In this document: in pieces, positions 33,876 through 46,770 of the stretch
Numbering within the stretch: position 1 is the stretch's first letter
Layout of the letters: every line of letters starts with the position of its first letter
From: an uncultured Methanosarcinales archaeon
Lineage (GTDB): Archaea; Nanobdellota; Nanobdellia; Woesearchaeales; CAZOXR01
Length of the DNA: 64,000 nucleotides
NCBI GenBank assembly: GCA_964566535.1
Contig: CAZMIO010000003.1
Coordinates: 1-64,000 of the forward strand
Direction of reading: 5' to 3'
Translations under genes and position numbers: made by a program
The notes under the pieces: model-generated
Database searches by the model: none
The model's input: only the letters and a program-made list of their open reading frames with translations
Told to the model about the DNA's origin: nothing

Positions 33876-33911
33876 TTACTTATTTTGACCTTTATAGAAC
33901 TTCCTCAATTC
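33876..33911 (-). pseudogene. Putative displaced copy of DNA ligase C-terminus (ELRKFYKGQNK*)
   Basis: Aligns with ligase end MVNNFYKKQKK* including the stop position. Confidence 0.55.
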
Positions 33912-34922
33912 TTAAATCACAATTCTATTTAGTTTCTTCTGTTTCTCTTCAGATATAAATCCGATCTTTTCTTTAAATATCTTAAAATCTTTCTTGTAAG
34001 TTATAAATATTTTATATGTATGCTTAGTTTCTCCTTTCTTGGTTTTATACTCCCTTTTGAAGATAGGGCCTTTGACTTTTATTCCAAGGCTGTTTAAGAG
34101 TTTCTTGTTATCCAAAAGTAGATTTGATGTCTTATCTTTTTTAACATCTATTGTATTTGTTAAATCAATCACTCTTCCACCATTTGAATCTTTCCTAATG
34201 TAAACTGAGCCATCATCATCAAATGCTTGTCTTAAGAACTCACCTTTCACTATATCATCACTATCAATTATGAACTCAGGTATCTTCTGATTACTTATAG
34301 TCTTTGGCCCATCGCAAATGCCAATACCGTACTTTAAGATTATTCCTAATATTTTTGGAAAATTGGGATGTGTATCCTCTAGATTTATTTTCATATTTCC
34401 TATTAAAGATATTGATTTTTCTATCAAATTCAATCTTAATCTTTTATTATAATTTCTATAGAAAGGATATAGAAGTGGCTCTTTTATTAACCCTCCATCA
34501 TGTAGAATAGCTGAAATCAATACTGCCCCTTCTGGACAATTGAAATTTATTGGAAATTTGGGCGAATATATGAATTTTCCATTAGTTTTTGTGCCTATTT
34601 TCATTATATTATCCATTATAGTTTCGTGACTGATTTTAAAGTAATCATGGACATACAGGAAATTAATCATTTTTTCAAAAAAAGCCAGTGATTTACTCTG
34701 CCCGTTAAAGAAATTCATTACCTCATGGAAAGGCACCCTCGCATACAACGAAATATATTTCTTTGTTTTGCCCTTTTTTAATAATATTTCTTTAAATTTA
34801 GATTTAAAATCATCATTTAGCTGAATATAAACTAAATTATATGGAAGATCCCATAAATCTGTAATTCCAGTAATATTACCTTTAGGCTTATATTCATCAA
34901 ACAATTTATTATTTAAATTCAT
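33912..34922 (-). CDS. Free-standing two-motif LAGLIDADG homing endonuclease
   Basis: ISAILHDGG and FLRQAFDDDGSV, FKEKIGF; no intein splice residues or host extein. Confidence 0.85.
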   Translation of the reverse strand: MNLNNKLFDEYKPKGNITGITDLWDLPYNLVYIQLNDDFKSKFKEILLKKGKTKKYISLYARVPFHEVMNFFNGQSKSLAFFEKMINFLYVHDYFKISHETIMDNIMKIGTKTNGKFIYSPKFPINFNCPEGAVLISAILHDGGLIKEPLLYPFYRNYNKRLRLNLIEKSISLIGNMKINLEDTHPNFPKILGIILKYGIGICDGPKTISNQKIPEFIIDSDDIVKGEFLRQAFDDDGSVYIRKDSNGGRVIDLTNTIDVKKDKTSNLLLDNKKLLNSLGIKVKGPIFKREYKTKKGETKHTYKIFITYKKDFKIFKEKIGFISEEKQKKLNRIVI

Positions 34923-35059
34923 ATTAAATCACCGAATCATTATTGAGTTTAAACTATCTAAATGATTTTTAGTAAAACGAAAATCATAATTTAATAGTTG
35001 AAATATCTCTAAGGTGATTTAAACTATTGAATGAAAATATAAATTGAAGAAACTGATTG

Positions 35060-35092
35060 TTTAAATATCTTCCGGGGGTCCATGTCCAGTGG
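35060..35092 (-). promoter_or_regulatory. Conserved 33-bp motif (CCACTGGACATGGACCC + BRE/TATA) upstream of LAGLIDADG gene
   Basis: 29/33 identical to 45971..46003. Confidence 0.75.
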
Positions 35093-36844
35093 TTATTTCT
35101 TCTGTTTTTTATAAAAATTATTAACCATACTAAGCGTTGTTATATCTCTTGCAGACCGTTCTGGTCTAAGTCTACTCAACCTTGGAAATCTCAACGCAAA
35201 TCCGCTAGAATAAGTGGGGCTTTTCTGTATCTCTTCATAAACCACTTCTACTACAATTTTGGGCTTAATCTGGACTTCTTTACCTTTTTCTTCCGTAATC
35301 AAAGGTTTCAACTCATCAGTTAACTGCTCAAACGTAACGTCTTCTCCTGACTTCTCTTTAATACCAGTTCCTACCTTTCCCATCTCAAGATATTTCCCTT
35401 CATCAATACATGCTAAAGTAAAAGAGCTTAACCATTTAGCCCTCTTCCCTTCACCCCACTCAGCTCCAATTATGACTAAATCAAGGGGCTCTTGTTCACC
35501 CTTCACTTTGACCATGAATCCAACCCGAGACCCTGGCTTATAAGGTGCATCTAATTTCTTAAACATAACTCCTTCATTCCCAGCAGAAATCGCTTCCTTG
35601 TAAAACTTCTCAGCCTCTTTCTCAGAAGACGTTACCAAGCTTTCAGCCAAAACCAATTTCAACTTGTGCGGCTTAATAATCTTCTCAAGAACTTTTCTCC
35701 TTTCCCTAAACTCAGAACTGATCATACTCTTCCCTTCATAATTCAATATATCAAAAACATTAACCTCCACTGGAAATTCCTTGGCCATCCTCTCAATATC
35801 ATATTTCCTCCTTATCCTTTGAGAAACAGTCTGGAATGGCAAATAATTCTTAGTCTTAACATCATAACCAACGGCTTCTGAATCCAAAATAAATTCTTTA
35901 GCCAGAACACTATCAGATACATGCTTAACAACATCAGGAAATTGATTAGTAACCTCATCTAAACGACGTGTAAAAATACGAATCTTACCATCAAACTTAT
36001 GTATCTGCATCCTAAACCCATCATACTTAAACTCAATACCTGCAGGCTTGCCAACCCGCGTAAATGCCTCTTTCATATCCTCAGCTTTTATAGCAAGCAT
36101 AACTTTAATTGGCTTACCTCCAACCATAACTATCCCTAAAAGCCCGCTCAACCCTTTACTCTTAGCAGTTGAGGCAACAACTGAGAAATCATTTGTCAGG
36201 TCATATGCCCTCTGAACTGCATCAACATATTTATTATACTCCTCACGATCATCAACATCAATCGAAATTTCCTTTGAATCATAACTCACACCGGCTTCTT
36301 TGCCAAAAAAAGCCCAAACAATAGAATCCCTTAAACTTCCTTCACCAACACCAACTCTTAACTCCTTAAGAACAGTACGAACAATAAACCTTGCCTCAAC
36401 ATCTTTAGCAGAAGTAAGTAATTCAGCAATAAGCCCAACTTTCCTCTCAACCGTCCCTGCACCTTCAAGCTCCGCCAACTTCCTAAGATTCTCAAACACC
36501 TTTTTAACAGTCAATTGATGAGATAACAAAGTAACTTGCTTCTTAACCTTAATCAGATTCTCAGCAACCTTGCCTAAATCCCCTGTTTTCTTCCATTCAT
36601 TCTCAATCTTACCACTACTCAACCCAGTTGCAACATTAATTGCCTTCAAAACTAATCTAGAAGCAACCCCAGTCTCCCGCTCATCCCAATTCGGAAACAA
36701 CCTTCCCTGAATCAACAACACAATAGTAGAAATATCATCAGAACTAACATGTTTTAAGAACTCAGAGATGATATATGTCTTCTCCAGCCGTTTAGTAGTT
36801 CCCTCTAATTTTTCATATACTTCCACTAGTTTACCATATATCAT
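35093..36844 (-). CDS. lig: ATP-dependent DNA ligase
   Basis: EFKYDGFRMQIH, EGVMFK, KVKG, ALRFPR. Confidence 0.97.
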   Translation of the reverse strand: MIYGKLVEVYEKLEGTTKRLEKTYIISEFLKHVSSDDISTIVLLIQGRLFPNWDERETGVASRLVLKAINVATGLSSGKIENEWKKTGDLGKVAENLIKVKKQVTLLSHQLTVKKVFENLRKLAELEGAGTVERKVGLIAELLTSAKDVEARFIVRTVLKELRVGVGEGSLRDSIVWAFFGKEAGVSYDSKEISIDVDDREEYNKYVDAVQRAYDLTNDFSVVASTAKSKGLSGLLGIVMVGGKPIKVMLAIKAEDMKEAFTRVGKPAGIEFKYDGFRMQIHKFDGKIRIFTRRLDEVTNQFPDVVKHVSDSVLAKEFILDSEAVGYDVKTKNYLPFQTVSQRIRRKYDIERMAKEFPVEVNVFDILNYEGKSMISSEFRERRKVLEKIIKPHKLKLVLAESLVTSSEKEAEKFYKEAISAGNEGVMFKKLDAPYKPGSRVGFMVKVKGEQEPLDLVIIGAEWGEGKRAKWLSSFTLACIDEGKYLEMGKVGTGIKEKSGEDVTFEQLTDELKPLITEEKGKEVQIKPKIVVEVVYEEIQKSPTYSSGFALRFPRLSRLRPERSARDITTLSMVNNFYKKQKK

Positions 36845-36882
36845 AGTTAAATATTTAAATAAGTAATATAAATAATTTACTT

Positions 36883-37545
36883 ATGGACGTATTTGATTGT
36901 ATTAGGACGAGGCGCTCAGTCAGAAGGTATAAAGACCAGCCAGTAGAGTGGGATAAAGTCATCACAGTTCTTGAGGCAGGAAAATTCGCTCCAAACGCAG
37001 GAAATATCAGCAATTTCAAATTTATTATCGTAAGAGATGAAGCACTAAGGAGACAATTATCAGAAGCGTCATACAATCAATCATGGATGGCAGACGCCCC
37101 AGTCCACATTACAATCTGTTCTGAACCTGTAAAATCAAAACGTTTCTATGGAGTTAGGGGGCAAAGACTCTACACTATTCAAGATTGTGCAGCAGCAGCA
37201 GAAAACATGCTACTCGCAGCCCACTCATTAGGTTTAGGTGCATGTTGGGTTGGAGCATTCGACGAAAGTAAAGTACGAATCATCCATCACCTACCAGAAA
37301 CAATACAAGCTCACTCCATCATTACAATAGGCTATCCAGATGAAACTCCCGAAATGCCACCAAAATATAGAATCGAACATGTGGTATTCTTAGACAAATG
37401 GGGAAGAAAGAAAAACATTCCCTTCTCTTCAATGGGCTGGTGGAGCGCAAGGTGGGAGAAAGGAGTAAAAGATGCAGCAAAAGGCATCAAAAAGCAAGTA
37501 AAACAAGTCAGGAAAGGAATTCTTCAGAAAAATCAAATGCCTTGA
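36883..37545 (+). CDS. Nitroreductase family protein
   Basis: RRSVRRY, APNAGN, ENMLLAAHSLGLGACWVG, IGYP. Confidence 0.92.
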   Translation: MDVFDCIRTRRSVRRYKDQPVEWDKVITVLEAGKFAPNAGNISNFKFIIVRDEALRRQLSEASYNQSWMADAPVHITICSEPVKSKRFYGVRGQRLYTIQDCAAAAENMLLAAHSLGLGACWVGAFDESKVRIIHHLPETIQAHSIITIGYPDETPEMPPKYRIEHVVFLDKWGRKKNIPFSSMGWWSARWEKGVKDAAKGIKKQVKQVRKGILQKNQMP

Positions 37546-37547
37546 TT

Positions 37548-38660
37548 TTATCTTGCATGTAGCAGAACTTTTAATCGTCCTTGAGTGCTAAGTAGGATAC
37601 CAGTAGTTTTATTATCCAAAATACGTTTAAATTTCTTGCATAATTCAAGTGTCATAGCTATTAAAGCAACCATCCTCTCACCCTCTTCAATTCTTCTTTT
37701 TGCCCCATCCTCTAACTGTTTAATCAACCCTCTAGCTCGTGGAATAATCTCCCTTTCTACAGAGGGAGGCAACTCTCTCTTAACGAGGATCTCTAATGCT
37801 CTTCTCCCAAAACCACTAAATCTTCTAAGAGCTCCAAATTCCTTTCTAAGCTCAAAAGCAATTATATCCAAGGCCTCTGTTCTAGTTTTCCCAGCAAAAT
37901 ATCTCCTAACACCTCCAGATTGGATAATTGCATTAAACTTATCAGCAACCTCCATAATTGTACACTCCTTTGGTAATTTCCCCCTCTTTTCTTTACTAAA
38001 ATATGAGGGATGATGCGATACTGCAAGATCAACAACCTCCTTTCTTACTCCAACCTCTCCCAATATGCTCCCAGTAGCTGTTTGGTGATGCTGGATATAC
38101 TCCAACACACTTCTTTTTAAGAAAGACAACAAACCCTTATCTCTTAACCATACTAGAAAATCACTACGATACCCCCTTGGATTATTTGATTTTCTACTTT
38201 TGAACTTAATTACATCCCCTAAAGTTATACCTTTAATTACAAGCCCGATATTACTTGGAGGTTCTTGACCAGGATTCAAAGATCTCCATATTGCTATTTC
38301 ATCTTCATCAGATAAGTCCAATATTACTTCATGGACATCTAACTTCCCAACATCATGGAGCATAGCAGCAATCATAAGATCTTGTAATTTATCGGCTTTA
38401 ATCCCCATCCTCTTCCCTATATAGTATACATCTCTTGCCACCATCATAGAATGCCTAAGTGTGTTCACATGATGCCCCTTAAGTTCTCTTAGAACAGCAA
38501 TTTCTTCTCTTCTTAAATCTTCAAGAATAGAACGTTTAAAAATCTCAAACCCACCTTCCTCTTCATCAGTTCCATTTAACCTTAATCCTTTAACAGCCTT
38601 TAATATATCATCCATAACACTTTTTTGTTCTAGTGTTTTATATATTTTATGATAATACAC
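37548..38660 (-). CDS. HD-domain phosphohydrolase (HD-GYP-like scaffold)
   Basis: HSMMVA, LHDVGKL, HH, SHH, VADKFNAI. Confidence 0.75.
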   Translation of the reverse strand: MYYHKIYKTLEQKSVMDDILKAVKGLRLNGTDEEEGGFEIFKRSILEDLRREEIAVLRELKGHHVNTLRHSMMVARDVYYIGKRMGIKADKLQDLMIAAMLHDVGKLDVHEVILDLSDEDEIAIWRSLNPGQEPPSNIGLVIKGITLGDVIKFKSRKSNNPRGYRSDFLVWLRDKGLLSFLKRSVLEYIQHHQTATGSILGEVGVRKEVVDLAVSHHPSYFSKEKRGKLPKECTIMEVADKFNAIIQSGGVRRYFAGKTRTEALDIIAFELRKEFGALRRFSGFGRRALEILVKRELPPSVEREIIPRARGLIKQLEDGAKRRIEEGERMVALIAMTLELCKKFKRILDNKTTGILLSTQGRLKVLLHAR

Positions 38661-38680
38661 ATAGCTATTTTGAATTATAA

Positions 38681-39121
38681 TTAATTCTTAACAACTACCT
38701 TACCAACAATAGTATAGAAAACAACATCTTGATAATTATAAATCCCAGCTTCAGTAAAAGTGAATGAATAACTATCGCCAGGTGCGGTTCTCCCACTTCT
38801 AAATCTCCTGGATTTATCCATTATTGTATGAGGCCTTCTGTCGTTATTAAACCATGTAACTGTAGTTCCTACAGAGACAACAACTTTATCAGGTTCAAAA
38901 GAACCACCTTCCATCTTAATGATAACTTCTTCAGCTTCTGGTTCAGCTTCAATCTTTTCCTCAACAACAACTTCATCCACTTCTTCAGAAACAACTTCTT
39001 TGGGCGCATCTACAACCTCTCCATCATCAACAACAGCTGCACCTGAAATATCATTTACCTCACTCTGACAGCCAATAAGAACTAATAAAATTACAACTCC
39101 AACTAAATATTTTATATTCAC
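38681..39121 (-). CDS. Cupredoxin-fold lipoprotein
   Basis: LIGC lipobox; FEP..V.VGTTVTWFNND..PHT; SYSFTFTEAG.YNY. Confidence 0.75.
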   Translation of the reverse strand: MNIKYLVGVVILLVLIGCQSEVNDISGAAVVDDGEVVDAPKEVVSEEVDEVVVEEKIEAEPEAEEVIIKMEGGSFEPDKVVVSVGTTVTWFNNDRRPHTIMDKSRRFRSGRTAPGDSYSFTFTEAGIYNYQDVVFYTIVGKVVVKN

Positions 39122-39266
39122 TTCTACACTCCCAACAGCAATTCAATAAGAAAGTAAGTATATAAACCTATCTAAAAACAACAAACGCCCGTGAAGAGAA
39201 TAATGTCAGTTAAGAAGAAAAAAATAGAAATGTTTATATAATGGTTATTATATATAGTTATATAAG

Positions 39267-39533
39267 ATGGCGCCAACAACTATTTTACATAGTCCAACAT
39301 TAGAATCTGTAATTATGGTAGAGAAAACAATACAAAAACATAGCCAAGAATGTGGTAAATATCAATTATGGAAAAAATTACCTAAGAAAATGATGTATCA
39401 AACTTTCCAAGTGATATTGAATTATTTAGAACAATCTGGAAAGATTATGGTAGATAAGGACGGTTGTCTAATTTGGACTTATAATCCTAAAAGAATTAAA
39501 AAATTAATCTCGGAAGGGTTAGCTGTAAGATGA
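39267..39533 (+). CDS. Small winged-helix-like protein, putative antitoxin
   Basis: 88 aa, YQTFQVILNYLEQSGKI; ATGA overlap with next gene. Confidence 0.6.
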   Translation: MAPTTILHSPTLESVIMVEKTIQKHSQECGKYQLWKKLPKKMMYQTFQVILNYLEQSGKIMVDKDGCLIWTYNPKRIKKLISEGLAVR

Positions 39534-39865
39534 ATAAAGAGATTTCTGTTGCGTTTGTTAACCAGAAATTAAAACACGATTTTAACTTATTAAAAGAAGG
39601 AAATTTTGAAGATAAAAAATTATATGAGTTTATTGATAGGGCCCTAGATGATCTGAAGAAAAACCCTTCCTGCGGTACAAAAATTCCTAAGAAATTATGG
39701 CCAAAAGAGTATATTCAGAAATATGAGATAACTAATCTATGGAAATATGATTTACCTAACGCTTGGAGATTAATTTATATCATTGAAACAGATGAAATTA
39801 TGATTATGAATATAATTCTGGAGTGGTTCTCTCACAAGGAATACGAGAGAAGATTCAAATATTAG
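39530..39865 (+). CDS. RelE/ParE-like toxin
   Basis: LKKNPSCG, LWKYDLPNAWRLIY, HKEYERRF. Confidence 0.65.
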   Translation: MNKEISVAFVNQKLKHDFNLLKEGNFEDKKLYEFIDRALDDLKKNPSCGTKIPKKLWPKEYIQKYEITNLWKYDLPNAWRLIYIIETDEIMIMNIILEWFSHKEYERRFKY

Positions 39866-39901
39866 TTTTTCCTTCTTTCACACTCACGTAAAAACAACAA
39901 A

Positions 39902-39974
39902 CGCCCGTGCCGGGAATCGAACCCGGGTCTGAAGGTCCGCAACCTCCTATTCTGATCCACTATACTACACGGGC
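39902..39974 (-). tRNA. tRNA-Arg(GCG)
   Basis: GCCCGTG/CACGGGC acceptor stem, GGAGG-TTGCGGA-CCTTC anticodon arm, GGTTCGATTCC T arm. Confidence 0.95.
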
Positions 39975-39980
39975 AATAAA

Positions 39981-41528
39981 TCAATTAAACTTCTTCAAAC
40001 TAACTTGACCTTTCCGCCTACTAACCTTAACCTCTTTAAACTCCTGCCCAACCTGCTTCTTAACATCAACAGCAGTCTTTCCACCCAAAATCTGTTTCAA
40101 CTTAGAAATATCAGCTTTCTTAACATCTGAAACATCTTTAATTCCATTAAAGAACAACTTACGACCTCTAGCTCTACCTACACCTCTAAACTTCAAGAGT
40201 GGAATCAACTCTTCCCTAACTCCATGCTTAAACCTAACCCTCAATTTCTTAAGTTCTGTCCCTAAATTCTTTAAAGCCAACATCCTACTCATCTCATCAC
40301 AAAAGTAAAGCAGCCAATCACCAATCCCTAGTTTAACTCTTAATTCACCAGGCCGAACACTATACTCTTCAAGTAAATACTCTTCATCTTTCTCATTAAT
40401 CCAGTCTTTAAACATCAAAGCAGTCTTAACACTAGACAAAAAGTCCTCATAATCAGGATCATACATCACAGGTTCTTTCTCAAGCAATGAATCGCCATAC
40501 TGAAGTAAAGCCTCTTGCACTTTATCATATTCCTTAACCTTAACCCTAAGTGTAGGCCGCATCTCAAGTGTATGACTTAACATCTGTAAAAAAGACAGTT
40601 CAGATATCTTTCCACCCTTCTTCAAACAATCAATAATAAAATTAGCAGTAAGTGGATCAATATAAAGTTCAGAAACTCTTTTACCGATAAGCGTAGCTTT
40701 ATACTTCTCATTCCCAATCTCATCAGCACTCTGAAAGTCATCAGTCTTACCACTCTTAATAAATTCCCAATCCTCAAGCATAGTAAGCATCCTCTCAATC
40801 ATACCTTCAATCTTATCCATTTCTTCAAACTGATGAGCCCAAAAAGTCTTAGAAAAAAAGTCAATTATCTGTTCCTTCGAACTAACAAAATCAGAAGCAA
40901 TTAAACTAAGTAAATAAGTCCTAAGCGCAGGCTCAACAGCTAACTTAGAATGAATATCTTCTGCCTCCCCAGTAATATACCTATTATAAATCTCATCCCT
41001 ATCACTTTCAGTAGCAGCAATACAAATAGCCTCCCCCCTAGTATCATATCCAGGCCTTCCAGCCCGACCAAACATCTGATGAGCCTCTAAGACAGGAATA
41101 AAATTCAAACCATGCTGACCGTACCTTTTTAGGTCTCTCATTATAACTCTATAAGCAGGCAAATTAACTCCCCAAGCTAAAGTTGGAGTACAACTAATAA
41201 TCTTAACATGACCTTTCTTAAAATTAGTCTCAATAATCTCCTTCTGTTTAGAAGTAAGCCCAGCGTGATGAAAAGCAACACCTTTCTTAATACATTTACT
41301 CAACCTATTACACTGCTTAGTAGCCTTAGGCAGATGCAAAACATCCAAACTCAAATTTTCCAACTCAACATCTGTACTTTTCAACCTCTTAGCAATCTCC
41401 TCAGCATTCTTCTCAGCCCCTCGTTTAGTCCCAACAAATACCAAAGCCTGCTTCCCAATCTTAATAGTATCTAAAGCAATGTTCAAACTAGGATTGTCAG
41501 TCTTCTCAGAAATCTTGATTGAATTCAT
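39981..41528 (-). CDS. Hel308/Ski2-like helicase lacking the first RecA domain
   Basis: FHHAGL, TPTLAWGVNLPA, QMFGRAGRP, C-terminal HhH; no Walker A or DExH. Confidence 0.85.
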   Translation of the reverse strand: MNSIKISEKTDNPSLNIALDTIKIGKQALVFVGTKRGAEKNAEEIAKRLKSTDVELENLSLDVLHLPKATKQCNRLSKCIKKGVAFHHAGLTSKQKEIIETNFKKGHVKIISCTPTLAWGVNLPAYRVIMRDLKRYGQHGLNFIPVLEAHQMFGRAGRPGYDTRGEAICIAATESDRDEIYNRYITGEAEDIHSKLAVEPALRTYLLSLIASDFVSSKEQIIDFFSKTFWAHQFEEMDKIEGMIERMLTMLEDWEFIKSGKTDDFQSADEIGNEKYKATLIGKRVSELYIDPLTANFIIDCLKKGGKISELSFLQMLSHTLEMRPTLRVKVKEYDKVQEALLQYGDSLLEKEPVMYDPDYEDFLSSVKTALMFKDWINEKDEEYLLEEYSVRPGELRVKLGIGDWLLYFCDEMSRMLALKNLGTELKKLRVRFKHGVREELIPLLKFRGVGRARGRKLFFNGIKDVSDVKKADISKLKQILGGKTAVDVKKQVGQEFKEVKVSRRKGQVSLKKFN

Positions 41529-41589
41529 AGAAAATATGAACAAATGAAGGTTTATATATTTTGTCAGTGCGAGCAAAGCAAGCTAACAT

Positions 41590-42284
41590 TACACCGTTTT
41601 TATTTAAAATTTCAAACCATTGGAAAAACAATTAAAACCGTATTGGGAAAATTAATTAAAATTTCAACCAAAAACACATAGAAATTATCAACGTAAATAC
41701 TTTCTACCTAACGTACCTAAACTAGCCGCTGCTACTAATGCTGCCCCGACAACTCCAACTACCTCTAAAGTCGTACCTTCTGCTGCATTAGCATGCTCAA
41801 CAGTAAGTTGATTTTCAACCACACCAACAGTCCTCTTAGCAGCTCTCTGTTCATAATCATCCGTCACATCATATCCTAATCGCACACTCTTTAGTCCATC
41901 AGCAATCCTGTTAACCTCAGATGTATCAACGCGATCATGTGCCAAACCTCTAATCGAGGCCTCTAAATGAGATAGGCTTTCCGCACTAGGGCCCCCAACT
42001 TCTACACTTAAATCAAAAGCTTCTTTTTGCACAGGATCAAATACTTCACTAAGCTCATCTCTCATTTGATCGCTATTAGCAAAGAGCAGATAAGCCACCC
42101 CTCCACCACCAACAATTCCCAAAACATATAAGCCTGGCTCTACATACCTCATTGCATCATGTCCTCTAGTGGGTGCGTCTTCCATGTTACATCCATAATA
42201 AACTATTCTTTAAAAAGTTTATTCTAAACCTACACCGTTTTTTATTTAAATTTAAAAATTTCAAACCATTGGAAAAACAATTAA
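41590..42284. repeat. Direct repeats flanking a single orphan gene
   Basis: TACACCGTTTTT(T)ATTTAAA plus 30-bp identical core at 41606..41635 and 42255..42284. Confidence 0.75.
41688..42185 (-). CDS. Hypothetical two-TM membrane protein
   Basis: Hydrophobic segments at both termini. Confidence 0.65.
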   Translation of the reverse strand: MEDAPTRGHDAMRYVEPGLYVLGIVGGGGVAYLLFANSDQMRDELSEVFDPVQKEAFDLSVEVGGPSAESLSHLEASIRGLAHDRVDTSEVNRIADGLKSVRLGYDVTDDYEQRAAKRTVGVVENQLTVEHANAAEGTTLEVVGVVGAALVAAASLGTLGRKYLR

Positions 42285-42300
42285 GAACATAACAAATCAA

Positions 42301-44193
42301 TCAAACAACCTTAACCCTCCACTCATAACTAACCTTCTCTTCACCATCACTAACAGTAACCCTAACTCTTTTATTCCCTTTACTAGTCCACGTTCTCTTA
42401 ACCTTACTCTTCCCATCAAACTTATCAAAAAACCCAAAATCCCATTTATACCCTAACCTATCCTTATCCCAATCAATAGCATCAACGGAAAACACAATCG
42501 GAACACCAGCCTTAACCTTAACTCCATCCAAAGGATTAGTCCTATTTATCACAGGCACCCTATTCACATTATTAACAAACACTAATAAACCTTGAGTATC
42601 AGAGGAATCACCATCAGAAACACTCAAAACAATATTTGCATATGCCTCATCTCCCTTAGAAACAAAATCATAATCAGGCACCCACTTAAACAAATTACCT
42701 TCAATCTCACCATAGCTAGAATTATCAACAAAAAACGTAAGTGAATCTCTATCAGCATCACTAGCACCTAACTCAACAACTAACTCTTCACCTTCTCTAA
42801 CATTCCTCTCACGTAAAGCCTTAAAGACAGGAGCCCTATTGGATTTCCTAACAATAACCTTAACATCCTCGCTATCACTCAACCAACCATCAGAAGCACT
42901 AACCTTAACCGTATACTCTCCTGCATCCCCATATGTAGTCCACCTACTAACACCATTCATCCATCCAGAATAACTAAACTTCAACTCATCACCATCAGGA
43001 TCTGATGCCTCAGCCTTAATAATAACTTCCTCACCTTCATTAACCACAATATTATCCAAAGAAACAACATCAGGAACTCTATTAACATCCTTAACAACAA
43101 AAGTAACCCTAGAAGAACTTTCTAACTCCAAACCCTTAACCTTAAAATCAACTGTAAAAGCTTCACTAACTAAATGATACTTGTCAAGCACATCATTAAC
43201 TACTCCTTCTCGCATAACAGCATCATAACCAGGATACCAAGAAAAAACATCCCCATCAATAGAAGCACCAGAAGGCATATCATCAGCACTATACGTCAAA
43301 GCATCAGAATCAGGATCACTCCCATTTAATTTAATAGTTACTTTCTGATCTTCCCGTAAAAACACCATTCTGTCAATCCTAAGATCAGGTTTTCTATCAA
43401 CATTATTCACCTTAATATTCACAGTTTTGCTCTCTTCATACTCTCCATCATATACCTTAATCTCAACCTCATGCTCCCCGCCATCATCATAACCAGTTTT
43501 CCACACACCATCATTACCAATCGGTTCAGAAATATTATATTCAAGATTATACTTACTAAAATCAGGTAACTTCAACCTAACAATCTCCTGCTCATCAACT
43601 TCAACGTCAACAAACTCCTCAAGTACAACACCCCTATCAACATCTTCAACATCAACTAACCACTCATGGGATGCAGCAGAATCCCCATCTGATGCAAAAG
43701 CATTAACAGTTCTTTCTCCTTCTTGATCATAACCAATAAAATATGTAAAAGAATCTCCTTCACCAACCCGTTCAGAATCAATCTCCCAATAATAAGTTAA
43801 TTCATCCCCGTTAACATCACTTGCACTTACGCTAAACTCAATCTTCTCAGTCTCTTTAAAACTAAGCTCATAAGAATCAGGTGAAAACAAAACAATTGTA
43901 GGGGCCTCTTCTTTCTTCTCAACAATTAACAAAACTTCTTCAGTAGTAGAGGCTTCACTGTCAGAAACAGTAACTGAAGTTTCATACTCTCCAAAATCCC
44001 CATAATTAGTCTGCCATTCCCCTTCAGAATCTAGGGGCTCAGAAAAACTATATGTTATCTCATCATCATCTGGATCATAAGCTTGAGGTTCTAATTTAAC
44101 TAAATCAGTTTCCTCAACAACTATTTCTTTAACAGCATACACACTGCCAATCACCAACAATACCAACAATAGTACCAACCCTTTCTTCATCAT
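42301..44193 (-). CDS. Secreted protein with tandem cadherin/Ig-like repeats and C-terminal PKD domain
   Basis: Signal peptide; repeated DPDGDEL.Y, V.VSDG, NR.P; WDFG. Confidence 0.75.
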   Translation of the reverse strand: MMKKGLVLLLVLLVIGSVYAVKEIVVEETDLVKLEPQAYDPDDDEITYSFSEPLDSEGEWQTNYGDFGEYETSVTVSDSEASTTEEVLLIVEKKEEAPTIVLFSPDSYELSFKETEKIEFSVSASDVNGDELTYYWEIDSERVGEGDSFTYFIGYDQEGERTVNAFASDGDSAASHEWLVDVEDVDRGVVLEEFVDVEVDEQEIVRLKLPDFSKYNLEYNISEPIGNDGVWKTGYDDGGEHEVEIKVYDGEYEESKTVNIKVNNVDRKPDLRIDRMVFLREDQKVTIKLNGSDPDSDALTYSADDMPSGASIDGDVFSWYPGYDAVMREGVVNDVLDKYHLVSEAFTVDFKVKGLELESSSRVTFVVKDVNRVPDVVSLDNIVVNEGEEVIIKAEASDPDGDELKFSYSGWMNGVSRWTTYGDAGEYTVKVSASDGWLSDSEDVKVIVRKSNRAPVFKALRERNVREGEELVVELGASDADRDSLTFFVDNSSYGEIEGNLFKWVPDYDFVSKGDEAYANIVLSVSDGDSSDTQGLLVFVNNVNRVPVINRTNPLDGVKVKAGVPIVFSVDAIDWDKDRLGYKWDFGFFDKFDGKSKVKRTWTSKGNKRVRVTVSDGEEKVSYEWRVKVV

Positions 44194-44217
44194 CCTTACC
44201 TCAAATAGAATATAAAA

Positions 44218-45756
44218 TCAGCCAAGTATTATATCTTCAATAACAGGAGCCCTGTTAACATTCTCCACAACAACTCTAACTGTTATACTATCACTATCAA
44301 TACCATCACTAGCACTTATAACAACATGATATTCACCAGCATCATCATATGATGTCTCCCACTCCCTATCATCACCAACTGGGTCTGAAATTGTATAACT
44401 TAATTCATCTCCATCAAAATCACTTCCTTCAGGAGTAATCACAACAGTTTCTGTCTCCCTAACATGAATGTCTTCCATTACAACTAATGTAGGCCTCCTA
44501 TTGACATTATCCACATTTATTACCCATTCATTCTCAATCTCTGAAGTTCCATCACTTACGGTAACTAGTAGGAAATGCCCACCAGCATCATCGTATTCTG
44601 GATTATACACATATTTAGTATCAGATGATACAACTAATCCATCTAGTTTCCAGCTATACTTCAATTCATCATCATTAAGGTCTGTCGCACTCACAATAAA
44701 CTCAATATTACTATTCTCAGAAACCCCTACACTACCTTCTTCAGGAGTATAACTCTCAAATGAAGGAGATTCTTCCCTTTTATTAACTAATATTAAAACA
44801 TCCTTCGAATCAGATAAACTTCCATCTGAAACTGTAACTGTAATTGTATATTCTCCAATATCTCCATAAGTGGTCTGCCATTCACCATTACTCTCAATTG
44901 GAGATGTATAATCATAAGTCAACCCGTCATTATCAGGATCATAAGCCTGAGGTTTTAACTTCACTAAATCAGTTTCAGAAACAATAAGAACTCCTACTTT
45001 TTCATCCCTTATAGGAATAGAGTCAGTATCTACTGTTTCAAGACCACCATCAACTACTTCTTCCTCATGTTCGATTACAACTGGTTCTACCGGATCCTCA
45101 ATAACTTCATCATCAATAACAATATCTTCTTCGCTTATTACAACTGGCCCCTCAATAACTTCTTCAGGAACAACAATATCTTCACCTTCAATAATAATCT
45201 CTACATCAACCACTTCAATAACTGGTTCTTCAATAATTTCCACAACAACTGGTTCTTCTTTCTCAATTACTCCCTGACCAACAAATCTAAGCTTAATATC
45301 AATAACATCAGCACTCTCAGGAATACTCTCTTCTAAAATTACAATCTCACTAGGATTACTATCAGCATCATCAGGCTCTAAAGTAATCATTACAGTTCTT
45401 GTATTAAGGATGTCTTCACTTGACATCTCAGATGTTAACTCCCCTTCACCTTCGCTATCAATACTAACTACTCCAACACTAGCTAGGAATTCAGTCTCTT
45501 TGTCTAATATCCAAGCTTCATAATAATAGTCTTCTTGCTGGGCCAACCCCTCAACATTAACAATAACTATACCTTCAATAGAATCAAGCGTAACAATTCC
45601 TTTTACATTATCTTCCACAAAAATATCTTCAATCGGTACAAAAGAAACACCTTCTTTACTAGGGTCGTAAGGCTCACATCCACTTAAGAATAACATAGAA
45701 ACTATTAACAACATAAAATAGAAATTCAATCTAAACTTCATCCTAAACCCCTTCAT
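44218..45756 (-). CDS. Lipoprotein with acidic linker and cadherin/Ig-like repeats
   Basis: LSGC lipobox, YEAWI..ITLEP domain, repeats paralogous to 42301..44193. Confidence 0.7.
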   Translation of the reverse strand: MKGFRMKFRLNFYFMLLIVSMLFLSGCEPYDPSKEGVSFVPIEDIFVEDNVKGIVTLDSIEGIVIVNVEGLAQQEDYYYEAWILDKETEFLASVGVVSIDSEGEGELTSEMSSEDILNTRTVMITLEPDDADSNPSEIVILEESIPESADVIDIKLRFVGQGVIEKEEPVVVEIIEEPVIEVVDVEIIIEGEDIVVPEEVIEGPVVISEEDIVIDDEVIEDPVEPVVIEHEEEVVDGGLETVDTDSIPIRDEKVGVLIVSETDLVKLKPQAYDPDNDGLTYDYTSPIESNGEWQTTYGDIGEYTITVTVSDGSLSDSKDVLILVNKREESPSFESYTPEEGSVGVSENSNIEFIVSATDLNDDELKYSWKLDGLVVSSDTKYVYNPEYDDAGGHFLLVTVSDGTSEIENEWVINVDNVNRRPTLVVMEDIHVRETETVVITPEGSDFDGDELSYTISDPVGDDREWETSYDDAGEYHVVISASDGIDSDSITVRVVVENVNRAPVIEDIILG

Positions 45757-45970
45757 TTTAATTTACTATTCTAAAATGCTAACTGGTATATAAACTTTAT
45801 GGTAGTTAAAACTATAGGTGTAAAATACAAGTCATCAAGAATCAGTAATGAAAAAGAAAAAATGGGCTTTTACATTAATCTACAATGATTTTGAACTCTT
45901 ATTTAATTCTATTATTTTCTCATCACCTAATGAATTTTTCAGCTATCAAATCATAATTTCATACCACAAC

Positions 45971-46003
45971 CCACTGGACATGGACCCTCGAAAGGTATAT
46001 AAA
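45971..46003 (+). promoter_or_regulatory. Conserved 33-bp motif upstream of second LAGLIDADG gene
   Basis: CCACTGGACATGGACCCTCGAAAGGTATATAAA; 29/33 identical to 35060..35092(-). Confidence 0.75.
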
Positions 46004-46046
46004 TCATTTACATAGTCAAAAAGAGTGATTAATCAGTGATTCAAAA

Positions 46047-46700
46047 ATGGAATTGAATAAAAAAATTGTTTTTCAGAATATGGATGAAATTGCAAGAATA
46101 CATGCCCATATATCTGGAGATGGATGTGTTTATACGAAGAATAGTAAAAGATCTCCAAGAAGTCTTTTAAAACATCCAAGAAAGAAACTTTATCAAACCA
46201 CATGGGTAATTGAGTACACCAATACATGTAGGGGACTGTTAGAAGAATTTAATCGTGATATGAAAGTTGCTTTTAATAGAAAAGGACAGTGGGCAAGCAA
46301 ATATCATAGAATAAGAGTTGATACAGTTAAATGGATTCTAGAGTTACTTGAACTTAAAGGAAAAAATTCCTACAATTGGAATATTCCCAAATATATCCTA
46401 AATTCCAATAAAAAAGTGATTTCTACGTGGATAAGGGCGTTTTTTGATGATGAATCAACTGTAACAAATACTGGGATGATTAGAGTAAAATCAGTAAATA
46501 AAGCAGGATTATCTCAAGTGAGAGAACTGTTGTACAGGTTTGGAATTGAAACAAGATTAACAGGACCAAATTGTGATAACACGTATTATTTGAGTGTTTA
46601 TAAGAGGTGTGGACCAATTTATCAAAAATATATAGGATTTAATCATCCTGCAAAGAAAGAAAAGATTCATAGAATAATAAGTGGGTCCGGGGCGATTTGA
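46047..46700 (+). CDS. Free-standing LAGLIDADG homing endonuclease
   Basis: HAHISGDG and WIRAFFDDES, YIGFNHPAKK; last codons overlap tRNA-Ile. Confidence 0.85.
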   Translation: MELNKKIVFQNMDEIARIHAHISGDGCVYTKNSKRSPRSLLKHPRKKLYQTTWVIEYTNTCRGLLEEFNRDMKVAFNRKGQWASKYHRIRVDTVKWILELLELKGKNSYNWNIPKYILNSNKKVISTWIRAFFDDESTVTNTGMIRVKSVNKAGLSQVRELLYRFGIETRLTGPNCDNTYYLSVYKRCGPIYQKYIGFNHPAKKEKIHRIISGSGAI

Positions 46701-46770
46701 ACGCCCGACCACTCGATATCTAAGTCAGACTTATCAGTCGAGCGCACCAGCCGGACTATGCTACGGACCC
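46682..46770 (-). tRNA. tRNA-Ile(GAT) with 14-nt intron at 37/38 (46718..46731)
   Basis: GGGTCCG/CGGACCC acceptor; CTCGA-CTGATA[AGTCTGACTTAGAT]A-TCGAG; CUGA/UUAG central helix with 3-nt bulges (BHB). Confidence 0.92.

Follow-up and report, generated by a model that had tools for sequence, protein, structure and literature searches.

The window analysed here, 64,000 nucleotides (nt) at the start of contig CAZMIO010000003.1 (assembly GCA_964566535.1) from an uncultured archaeon of the order Woesearchaeales, contains two genes for LAGLIDADG endonucleases, 11 kb apart. The first, HEG1, lies behind the gene of an ATP-dependent DNA ligase, and the second, HEG2, runs into the 3' end of a tRNA gene (Table 1). 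With a probability of about three in four, both belong to a set of 11 to 13 free-standing homing-endonuclease cassettes, which invade the ends of genes, bring a substitute end with them and use a promoter of the host's replication and repair genes. This reading draws on the anatomy of the cassettes, on the relic gene ends beside them, on synonymous divergence, on orthologs at the same site in other sources and on the distribution of a shared promoter motif.

HEG1, HEG2 and the ends of the neighbouring genes

Both open reading frames (ORFs), of 336 and 217 amino acids (aa), were pointed out by a sequence-only reading of the window; they are present and match the Pfam family LAGLIDADG_3 (PF14528) above its cut-off of 22.5 bits, HEG1 with 27.8 and HEG2 with 39.4. 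The two LAGLIDADG motifs read LISAILHDGG and FLRQAFDDDGS in HEG1, and IHAHISGDG and WIRAFFDDES in HEG2. The acidic residues that close these motifs are catalytic, and all 13 proteins of the source genome, as read from the sequences, keep an acidic residue ahead of the last G or S in both motifs. An AlphaFold model of HEG1 (pLDDT 68.9, pTM 0.64) has only LAGLIDADG proteins among its best 50 matches in the PDB, with TM-scores of only 0.3 to 0.4; the TliVMA intein endonuclease (7qsu, E 1e-5) comes first, and PI-SceI and I-DmoI are also found. Judged from this model, HEG1 has the LAGLIDADG alpha-beta fold in the form of a two-domain pseudo-dimer. By sequence, the best PDB match of HEG2 is PI-PfuI (1dq3, E 5e-4), and HEG1 has no meaningful match among the PDB sequences.

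The genes are separate ORFs, each with its own TATA-type promoter. A Pfam scan gave no Hint or intein domain at HEG1 or HEG2, an Rfam scan gave no intron family at the two loci, and no strong pairing was found across the junctions, which bears out their description as free-standing, intron-less and intein-less. The similar first residues (MNLNNKL and MELNKKI) that had been taken as a shared feature are a loose N/K-rich start, which other paralogs have as well. Overall, what the sequence-only reading had observed was partly confirmed, and its interpretation was partly supported.

Ligase matches were found in 40 of the 41 genomes searched. In the window the stop codon of the ligase (TAA, 35093-35095) is followed at the very next base (35092) by the promoter motif of the cassette, as had been noted, and HEG1 starts 170 nt beyond the stop codon. 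A second ligase-like C-terminus had been claimed behind HEG1, and the 60 nt past this gene were compared with the ligase tails of 28 relatives, which end in forms such as ..STLSMVKDFYKGQEKV-stop and ..EVKELYKGQKK-stop. The comparison scored 39, and 1500 random 60-nt windows drawn from the genome all scored lower (maximum 34). Compared with the ligase end of the window itself the similarity is weak, with a score of 27 and 74 of 500 shuffles as good. On the similarity to the relatives, the 36 bases past the HEG1 stop are a genuine ligase 3'-end relic. The stop codon of this relic adjoins that of a convergent gene (33873-33875), whose product of 3666 aa is probably a giant surface protein, with numerous N-x-T/S sites, a run of poly-Gly and a membrane segment at the C-terminus.

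The arrangement is repeated in two other sources. In the unpublished genome G132, the ligase ends ..RFPRFKRLRHMERSPEDIETLNGIRSLYNSQKKTS-stop and is followed by a 270-nt spacer with two variants of the upstream site (CCACTGGTCA...); the endonuclease ends ..LNKIII-stop, and directly behind it comes IREDRSPDDISTLKMVKEFYEGQKK-stop, a ligase relic of 25 codons. A public metagenome contig, L153 (Ga0066639_10114447), encodes a 51%-identical ortholog of HEG1 and then ..ILKIRDDLNPDECSDINLVEQLYRGQKK-stop. Because of the extents of these two relics, the insertion point of HEG1 is placed, at the sequence level, just past ligase motif VI (RFPR). The present end of the ligase gene past this motif would be the replacement end brought with the cassette; its start is put at 35179 since the relics of G132 and L153 start at the matching position, and the boundary should be accurate to a few codons. 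The relic in the window is a shortened version that lacks about 14 codons.

Matches to HEG1 at E<=1e-8 occur in 21 of 401 genomes of the order, and the only close one is in G132 (57% identity). No HEG1 match stands beside the ligase in 40 relatives, and in G001, from the same family, a convergent gene of 1005 aa follows right behind the ligase without a cassette. The spread is patchy. In two unrelated contigs, L154 and L155, more distant HEG1-like genes (29-31% identity) face the 3' end of a ppsA-like gene tail-to-tail; no ppsA relic was detected upstream of these endonuclease genes (33 and 90 of 200 shuffles as good). The ppsA-like ORF of L154 also has motifs of LAGLIDADG type (..LVITDGYIN.. 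and ..VLDGDGSF..), as if it were intein-bearing.

The terminal 20 nt of HEG2 run antisense into the tRNA 3' end, so the overlap that had been described stands; ARAGORN assigns this tRNA no amino acid, and the label Ile comes from the anticodon as read by eye. The proposed replacement gene end does not extend to this locus, where no relic or duplicate end was found upstream of the cassette (best score 14; 294 of 500 and 265 of 500 shuffles as good). Relatives of HEG2 are present in 62 of the 401 genomes of the order, a count that takes in the unpublished G315 and G182. Rfam recognised a tRNA in three of the eight closest HEG2-relative loci. The tRNAs are different, and in each locus the ORF stands tail-to-tail with the tRNA 3' end, which it overlaps by 9 nt (L084) or 41 nt (L090) or approaches to 3 nt (L086). 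ARAGORN found tRNAs of several amino acids in 5 of 29 such loci. Halves of a tRNA were seen by eye beside the closest relative (G341, L083); this case had no match with ARAGORN or Rfam and was left uncounted. In the source genome, another endonuclease gene, HEG228, is placed 22 nt behind a different tRNA. Enzymes of the HEG2 type would settle directly behind tRNA 3' ends, with no need of a replacement end.

Relic gene ends at other cassettes of the genome

A total of 16 LAGLIDADG_3 matches were obtained from the source genome of the window (G000; 1.45 Mb, 37 contigs, 91% complete, Woesearchaeota-type), comprising 11 free-standing genes and five matches within three long ORFs. Two further genes (320 and 391 aa) carry the motifs and score below the Pfam threshold. 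The long ORFs, of 1139, 1230 and 856 aa, are presumably intein-bearing. Free-standing endonuclease genes lie directly behind the genes for DNA ligase, a Rad50-like ATPase, a RecJ/GAN-like DHH protein, Nre and Tyw1, directly ahead of those for Tyw1 and MetRS, where they overlap the gene start, and tail-to-tail with those for an ArsP-type permease, a tRNA-splicing endonuclease and the tRNA-Ile. To call the targets essential, as the sequence-only reading did, is too strong, since they include the ArsP-type permease, Nre and Tyw1. Its idea of a replacement end at conserved genes holds beyond the window: relics flank five cassettes, at the 3' ends of the ligase, Nre, Tyw1 and ArsP genes and at the 5' end of the MetRS gene.

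The Nre relic (ILKNSILLRNMKQQSKLTQFL-stop versus NILRNSVLFNNIKSQKKLREFLI-stop) scored 64 and the Tyw1 relic 43, with none of 500 shuffles as good in either case. Upstream of its cassette, the relic of the MetRS N-terminus is identical in 13 of 13 aa, and the relic of the ArsP C-terminus, which lies beyond an inverted cassette, in 31 of 32 aa (0 of 200 shuffles as good for both). At the nucleotide level, the working end of ArsP and its relic agree at 70 of 99 positions; the figure for ArsP of relatives from different families is 63 to 79 of 99, and the pair shares residues absent from the five relatives compared. The MetRS copies differ by eight synonymous third-position changes without any amino-acid change. 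Since the differences in ArsP and MetRS are almost all synonymous, both copies must have been functional and under selection at the protein level while they diverged. In a local duplicate undergoing decay, changes would fall on every codon position, which points to a diverged donor, and one of the two end copies was thus probably imported in each case. Selection on the cassette for nucleotide divergence, which would avoid re-cutting and repeat-mediated loss, is possible as well.

The relics of MetRS and ArsP end exactly where the upstream site (CCACAAC)CCACTGGACA starts, and on the other side of a cassette the relic begins at or within the stop codon of the endonuclease. The mobile unit would therefore be the promoter and the ORF, with the gene end attached on one side.

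No relic was found for Rad50 at HEG275 (185 of 500 shuffles as good, 32 of 200 in a wider scan), for the RecJ-like gene at HEG348 (278 of 500, and 114 of 200 in the wider scan), for S30AE at HEG226 (106 of 500), for the Tyw1 N-terminus at HEG423 (179 of 200), for a trypsin-like gene (165 of 200) or for a small ORF in L058 (37 of 200). An apparent match to EndA (0 of 200) was rejected, as it is actually a LAGLIDADG motif on the opposite strand. One cassette, tail-to-tail with the gene for the tRNA-splicing endonuclease, is split into an ORF with helix-turn-helix (HTH) and NUMOD1 domains (150 aa) and a LAGLIDADG ORF (145 aa), and is probably a decaying copy.

A promoter element shared with replication and repair genes

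The sequence-only reading had described two blocks common to HEG1 and HEG2, and both were recovered, with 29 of 33 and 29 of 38 positions identical. Their order differs, the 33-bp block coming before the 38-bp block at HEG1 and after it at HEG2. The 33-bp block is a promoter, consisting of an upstream site, a spacer like a B recognition element (BRE) and a TATA box. Its 16-mer CCACTGGACATGGACC is present twice in the window, at 35077-35092 (-) and 45971-45986 (+), and none of 100 shuffles had any match. A weight matrix of this site found 17 sites above 45 bits in the source genome, none between 12 and 45 bits and none in the reversed control, and the spacing to the TATA box is fixed. LAGLIDADG-type genes follow 10 of the 17 sites (eight by Pfam, two by motif reading). 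The other seven precede two Bro-N genes and one each of a Cas4/PD-(D/E)XK nuclease, a Xer-type integrase, an RNase_H_2-type exonuclease, a small protein followed by RadA, and a small zinc-ribbon ORF.

A strict pattern, CCACTGGACANNNACC, matched just one of 40 relatives and was replaced as too narrow by a search for the core followed by a TATA box at a distance of 11-18 nt. This search found the element in 243 of the 401 genomes of the order, nine of them unpublished, and the backwards control had 13 hits altogether. From the unflagged genomes 40 sites were sampled, of which 39 have an ORF downstream; nine ORFs shorter than 65 aa were dropped and 30 were scanned. These include UvrA (2), MCM, Cdc6/Orc1, a Hel308-type helicase and a DEAD/Hef-like helicase (1 each), together with Cas4, DUF763 and the NgoPII endonuclease (1 each) and radical-SAM proteins with HhH (2). 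Bro-N genes (3), integrases (2), LAGLIDADG genes (2) and KilA-N (1) were also met, as were AlaRS and DUF2683 (1 each), and nine ORFs have no family. Four of these nine encode the small protein found ahead of radA, which follows in each case (67-71% identical). In G015, as read from the translations, the genes behind the site are an RNR-like gene, uvrA, radC and a Bro-N gene.

The motif is therefore not the private signal of the cassettes that it had been taken for. It stands mostly before endonuclease genes in the source genome, and order-wide it stands mostly before others. Archaeal activators usually bind directly upstream of the BRE; because the shared site has this placement, its best interpretation is an upstream site belonging to a replication and repair regulon that mobile genes use as well. 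Among the papers listed by a literature search, none concerns the motif in archaea.

The operon of the small protein and radA stands behind the site in G000, G018, G093, G245 and G005. Between the CCACTGGACA promoter and radA, these five genomes of five families encode a conserved protein of about 100 aa (..KKFSTGAICATIWKN..) without a Pfam family, which may bind single strands as a partner of RadA or take part in controlling the regulon. A further observation concerns an ORF of 531 aa in the window (39981-41576, -), which resembles only the C-terminal half of a Hel308-type helicase and may be a split helicase gene. A look-alike in G052 (L127; Helicase_C and archaeal helicase domain 4) lies directly behind a CCACTGGACA promoter.

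Around the promoter, a 5' module of about 150 nt, made up of the 38-bp block, the upstream site, the TATA box, the leader and the Shine-Dalgarno sequence, is 75-100% identical among its copies in the source genome. Six endonuclease genes and one Bro-N gene have the 38-bp block in common, and the six endonuclease genes also share the leader. This fits the idea of a portable expression module: as proteins, the paralogs that share the module are only 20-35% identical. The orthologs of HEG1 in G132 and L153 are without it, while dissimilar genes of the source genome share it; on this comparison the module is specific to the genome rather than to a lineage of endonucleases.

For both genes, a hairpin sequestering the ribosome-binding site had been proposed. 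At HEG1, a complementarity of 11 nt (35023-35013 with 34933-34923) is present in both the minimum free energy (MFE) fold and the centroid fold. The fold energy is ordinary (z -1.34; 17 of 200 shuffles fold as well). HEG1, HEG381 and HEG391 have the pairing TTTAAATCACC / GGTGATTTAAA in their MFE folds (z -1.34, -1.69 and -0.79), and no such hairpin is predicted for HEG2 (z +0.69 and +1.24), HEG226 or HEG423. At HEG1 the left arm is inside the transcript; in most copies it is upstream of the TATA box and therefore present only in read-through RNA. With these energies the self-silencing of the cassettes is unproven, and translational control similar to that of I-TevI is possible.

Table 1. Positions of the cassettes, their neighbours and related loci. 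Coordinates without a contig or locus name are those of the window.
Feature	Position	Strand	Basis or remark
ATP-dependent DNA ligase, 583 aa, working gene	35093..36844	(-)	Pfam DNA_ligase_A_N, _M, _C
Present ligase 3' end past motif VI (RFPR), LSRLRPERSARDITTLSMVNNFYKKQKK-stop; putative replacement end	35093..35179	(-)	codon positions
33-bp block of HEG1: upstream site CCACTGGACATGGACC, purine-rich BRE-like spacer, TATA box TATTTAAA	35060..35092	(-)	
38-bp block common to the HEG1 and HEG2 loci, at HEG1	34981..35018	(-)	
Left arm TTTAAATCACC, in or just 5' of the 38-bp block	35023-35013	(-)	complementary to Shine-Dalgarno/start region
Right arm GGTGATTTAAT, Shine-Dalgarno-like GGTGAT	34923..34933	(-)	before ATG at 34922
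HEG1, free-standing LAGLIDADG endonuclease gene, 336 aa, N-terminal helical domain	33912..34922	(-)	Pfam, fold model
Ligase 3'-end relic, ELRKFYKGQNK-stop	33876..33911	(-)	in frame past HEG1 stop; similarity to relatives' ligase tails
ORF of 3666 aa	22875-33875	(+)	
ORF pair (88 and 111 aa) beside tRNA-Arg	39267-39865	(+)	overlapping
ORF pair (630 and 512 aa)	42301-45756	(-)	adjacent
38-bp block, upstream of HEG2 promoter	45922..45959	(+)	
33-bp block of HEG2: upstream site, BRE-like spacer, TATA box (TATATAAA)	45971..46003	(+)	
HEG2, free-standing LAGLIDADG endonuclease gene, 217 aa	46047..46700	(+)	Pfam 39.4 bits
tRNA gene with short intron	46681..46770	(-)	ARAGORN; Rfam 52.1 bits; anticodon GAT (Ile) read by eye
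Copies of the 5' module in the source genome	C1:203965, C1:206355, C1:195898, C2:125317, C2:115517, window 45938, window 35002		
LAGLIDADG_3 in long ORFs of 1139, 1230 and 856 aa	C4:18070-18612, C2:35060-35572, C4:54122-54415		presumably intein-bearing
Split cassette (source genome, C4)	L016:1762-2891	(-)	
HEG1-like genes with ppsA-like genes	L154:1439-3667, L155:2113-2799	(-)	
Small radA-linked protein	G000 C14:9688 (L021:3142-4591); L122, L128, L131, L133		

Among the other genes of the window, the pair of overlapping ORFs beside the tRNA-Arg may be a toxin-antitoxin pair, the second one being RelE/ParE-like by eye (..NLWKYDLPNAWRLIY..). The adjacent genes of 630 and 512 aa encode acidic proteins of the same repeated domain (..ETDLVKLKPQAYDPD.D.LTY..), which have the look of secreted adhesins.

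Mechanism, alternatives and known systems

Each cassette consists of an upstream site with a BRE/TATA promoter, a short leader with the Shine-Dalgarno sequence GGTGAT and the endonuclease ORF, and cleavage, repair, import and regulation may be pictured as follows. The enzyme would cut a conserved stretch near the end of a conserved gene in a cassette-free genome; for HEG1, the cut would fall just past ligase motif VI, about 27 codons ahead of the stop. The break would be repaired from a cassette-bearing copy, with homology within the gene body serving on one side, and the repair would copy the cassette together with the donor's gene end, leaving the gene intact and the cut site recoded. Working ends and relics differ mostly at synonymous sites in ArsP (70/99 nt with 31/32 aa) and MetRS (8 silent changes), and differences of this kind at the target may protect a cassette-bearing allele. 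On the other side the DNA would be joined at the break, and the recipient's own end would stay behind the cassette as a relic, which could later act as the far homology arm in further homing events. The cassettes would be transcribed from the replication and repair type of promoter of the order, and the nuclease would be made together with RadA. Such a cut-and-repair mechanism would explain the start positions of the relics, the synonymous-only differences, the tight junction with the ORF stop, and the occurrence of both orientations and both gene ends.

Several observations weigh against this reading. Eight cassettes are without a relic, including those at Rad50, the RecJ-like gene, S30AE, the 5' side of Tyw1, EndA and the tRNA-Ile. 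Apart from HEG1, the ppsA group and the tRNA group, no cassette is shown to recur at the same site; the strongest case, G132, is unpublished, and the other one for HEG1 is a contig of 1822 bp without the body of the ligase. Among 400 other genomes, none has a relative of HEG391 at E<=1e-15, and HEG374 (MetRS) has a single match, of 23% identity, in genome contigs. A search of viral contigs with the 320-aa gene of the ArsP cassette also gave no match. The ligases of G000 and G132 are 66% identical and the endonucleases 54-57%, and the two cassettes might instead share descent, with many losses elsewhere. Either end may be the native one and the other the import; for the ligase, the working end resembles that of G001 (..YYKEQKK-stop) and the relic resembles the consensus of the order. 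Contigs from four marine or vent metagenome runs (X12, X15, X18 and X10), compared with 33000-37500, are too short to count for or against: they show no cassette-free ligase allele, none joins across the cassette, and one spans 34857-35371 without differences.

It is improbable that the proteins are domesticated, that is, immobile DNA-binding regulators of the WhiA kind that act on the shared site or on the neighbour gene, with the relics as old scars. WhiA comes up at ranks 16 and 19 of the fold search with the HEG1 model, many paralogs have N-terminal HTH domains, and the genes share a regulon-type promoter. However, WhiA-like regulators have lost the catalytic acidic residues, and these are kept in both motifs of 13/13 proteins here. 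The patchy spread (21/401 genomes for HEG1, with one close ortholog) and the identities of 20-35% among paralogs, as expected of separate target specificities, also speak against domestication, and the ArsP relic is nearly intact, pointing to a recent insertion. An equally low probability is given to the idea that the endonuclease gene is a passenger in cassettes that an integrase of the Xer type, a transposase or the like moves about, or that arose by local tandem duplication. A Xer-type integrase with the same promoter is indeed encoded in the genome (C10:41521), and elements that integrate into tRNA genes restore gene ends too. Yet no integrase or transposase lies within any cassette, which is made of promoter and endonuclease ORF only, with the relic starting at or inside the ORF stop codon, and the duplicated ends (70/99 nt) are not identical repeats of att type. 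Copies made by local duplication would start identical in nucleotides and decay at all codon positions, not at synonymous sites alone.

We consider it very improbable that the cassettes are intervening sequences, such as archaeal bulge-helix-bulge introns or intein-like elements, whose removal joins the ligase body with what we call the relic. In G132 the joining of ..RFPRF to IREDRSPDD.. would give a perfect ligase end, and in the ligase and Nre cases of the source genome the relic is in frame with the endonuclease ORF. But a complete conserved gene end with a stop codon precedes the cassette, a promoter and an untranslated leader separate the two ORFs, and the relic in the window is short by about 14 codons, so that the joined product would be defective. 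In a crude test the junction windows pair no better than shuffles (59/300 as good for G000 and 30/300 for G132), and neither a Hint domain nor an Rfam intron family was recognised.

Invasion of gene ends by cassettes with a replacement end has its closest precedent in endonuclease genes of fungal mitochondria with duplicated gene termini. In the mitochondrial DNA of Endoconidiophora resinifera, cob and atp6 are described with the order of gene, LAGLIDADG or GIY-YIG ORFs and then a partial C-terminal duplicate (PMC6279837). A second report, as far as its available part goes, describes truncated copies of atp6 and atp9 as well as free-standing endonuclease ORFs, without linking the two (PMC4162613). 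The order of gene, endonuclease ORF and partial copy of the end in E. resinifera is the same at the ligase, Nre, Tyw1 and ArsP genes here. Our cassettes differ in that they reside in a cellular archaeal chromosome, have intact endonuclease ORFs each with its own promoter, and also occur in a 5'-end version (MetRS) and inverted (ArsP), and in that synonymous-only divergence points to import from a diverged donor. Fungal mitochondrial endonuclease ORFs are frequently, though not universally, fused in frame to the upstream gene, unlike the case here, where the ligase ends with TAA before HEG1's own promoter. Older cases of duplicated termini are reportedly those of Allomyces atp6, credited to Paquin in 1994, and of Ophiostoma rps3, credited to Sethuraman in 2009.

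In T-even phages, free-standing endonucleases (seg and mob genes) carry out intronless homing, and I-TevI is under translational control by a hairpin at the ribosome-binding site. As in that scheme, the nuclease gene here lies between conserved genes, would cut a cassette-free neighbour and would be copied together with its flanks; the phage enzymes, however, are GIY-YIG or HNH proteins, their scheme does without a duplicated gene end, and the hairpin here is not significant by energy. Archaeal LAGLIDADG enzymes of introns (I-DmoI in rRNA) and inteins (PI-PfuI, the PI-SceI type, TliVMA) have the same fold and motifs, but they are spliced out, whereas the cassettes stand alone and supply a new gene end. 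Integrative elements that target the 3' ends of tRNA or protein genes also carry a substitute for the displaced end; they use an integrase and leave identical att repeats, whereas the cassettes contain no integrase and their repeats are about 70% identical in nucleotides (70/99). The papers listed by a literature search include none on such cassettes in archaeal chromosomes or on free-standing LAGLIDADG genes in DPANN archaea.

A wider reading is put forward tentatively. Beside introns and inteins, gene-end replacement would be a third general way to colonise cellular coding sequences, working at either gene end and in either orientation, with the relic as far homology arm. At the same time the order would have an order-wide replication and repair regulon, SOS-like or tied to the cell cycle, marked by CCACTGGACA 13-15 nt upstream of the TATA box and including radA, uvrA, mcm, cdc6, RNR and helicases of the Hel308 and Hef-like types. 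The element would have been captured by the cassettes as well as by Bro-N genes and integrases, and cutting by the nucleases would be confined to times when the recombination machinery is on.

The usual explanation for homing endonucleases in cellular genomes lies in their introns and inteins, thanks to which the insertion does no harm; the cassettes manage without splicing, by means of a recoded gene end. With 13 copies in 1.45 Mb, the arrangement is repeated within a very small genome, and one previously described in fungal mitochondria is thereby extended to chromosomes of archaea. Likely cut sites are marked by the relics, which so provide testable targets for new and highly specific nucleases. 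The shared promoter element defines what looks like the first replication and repair regulon of an uncultured DPANN-type order, and it offers a handle on the regulator.

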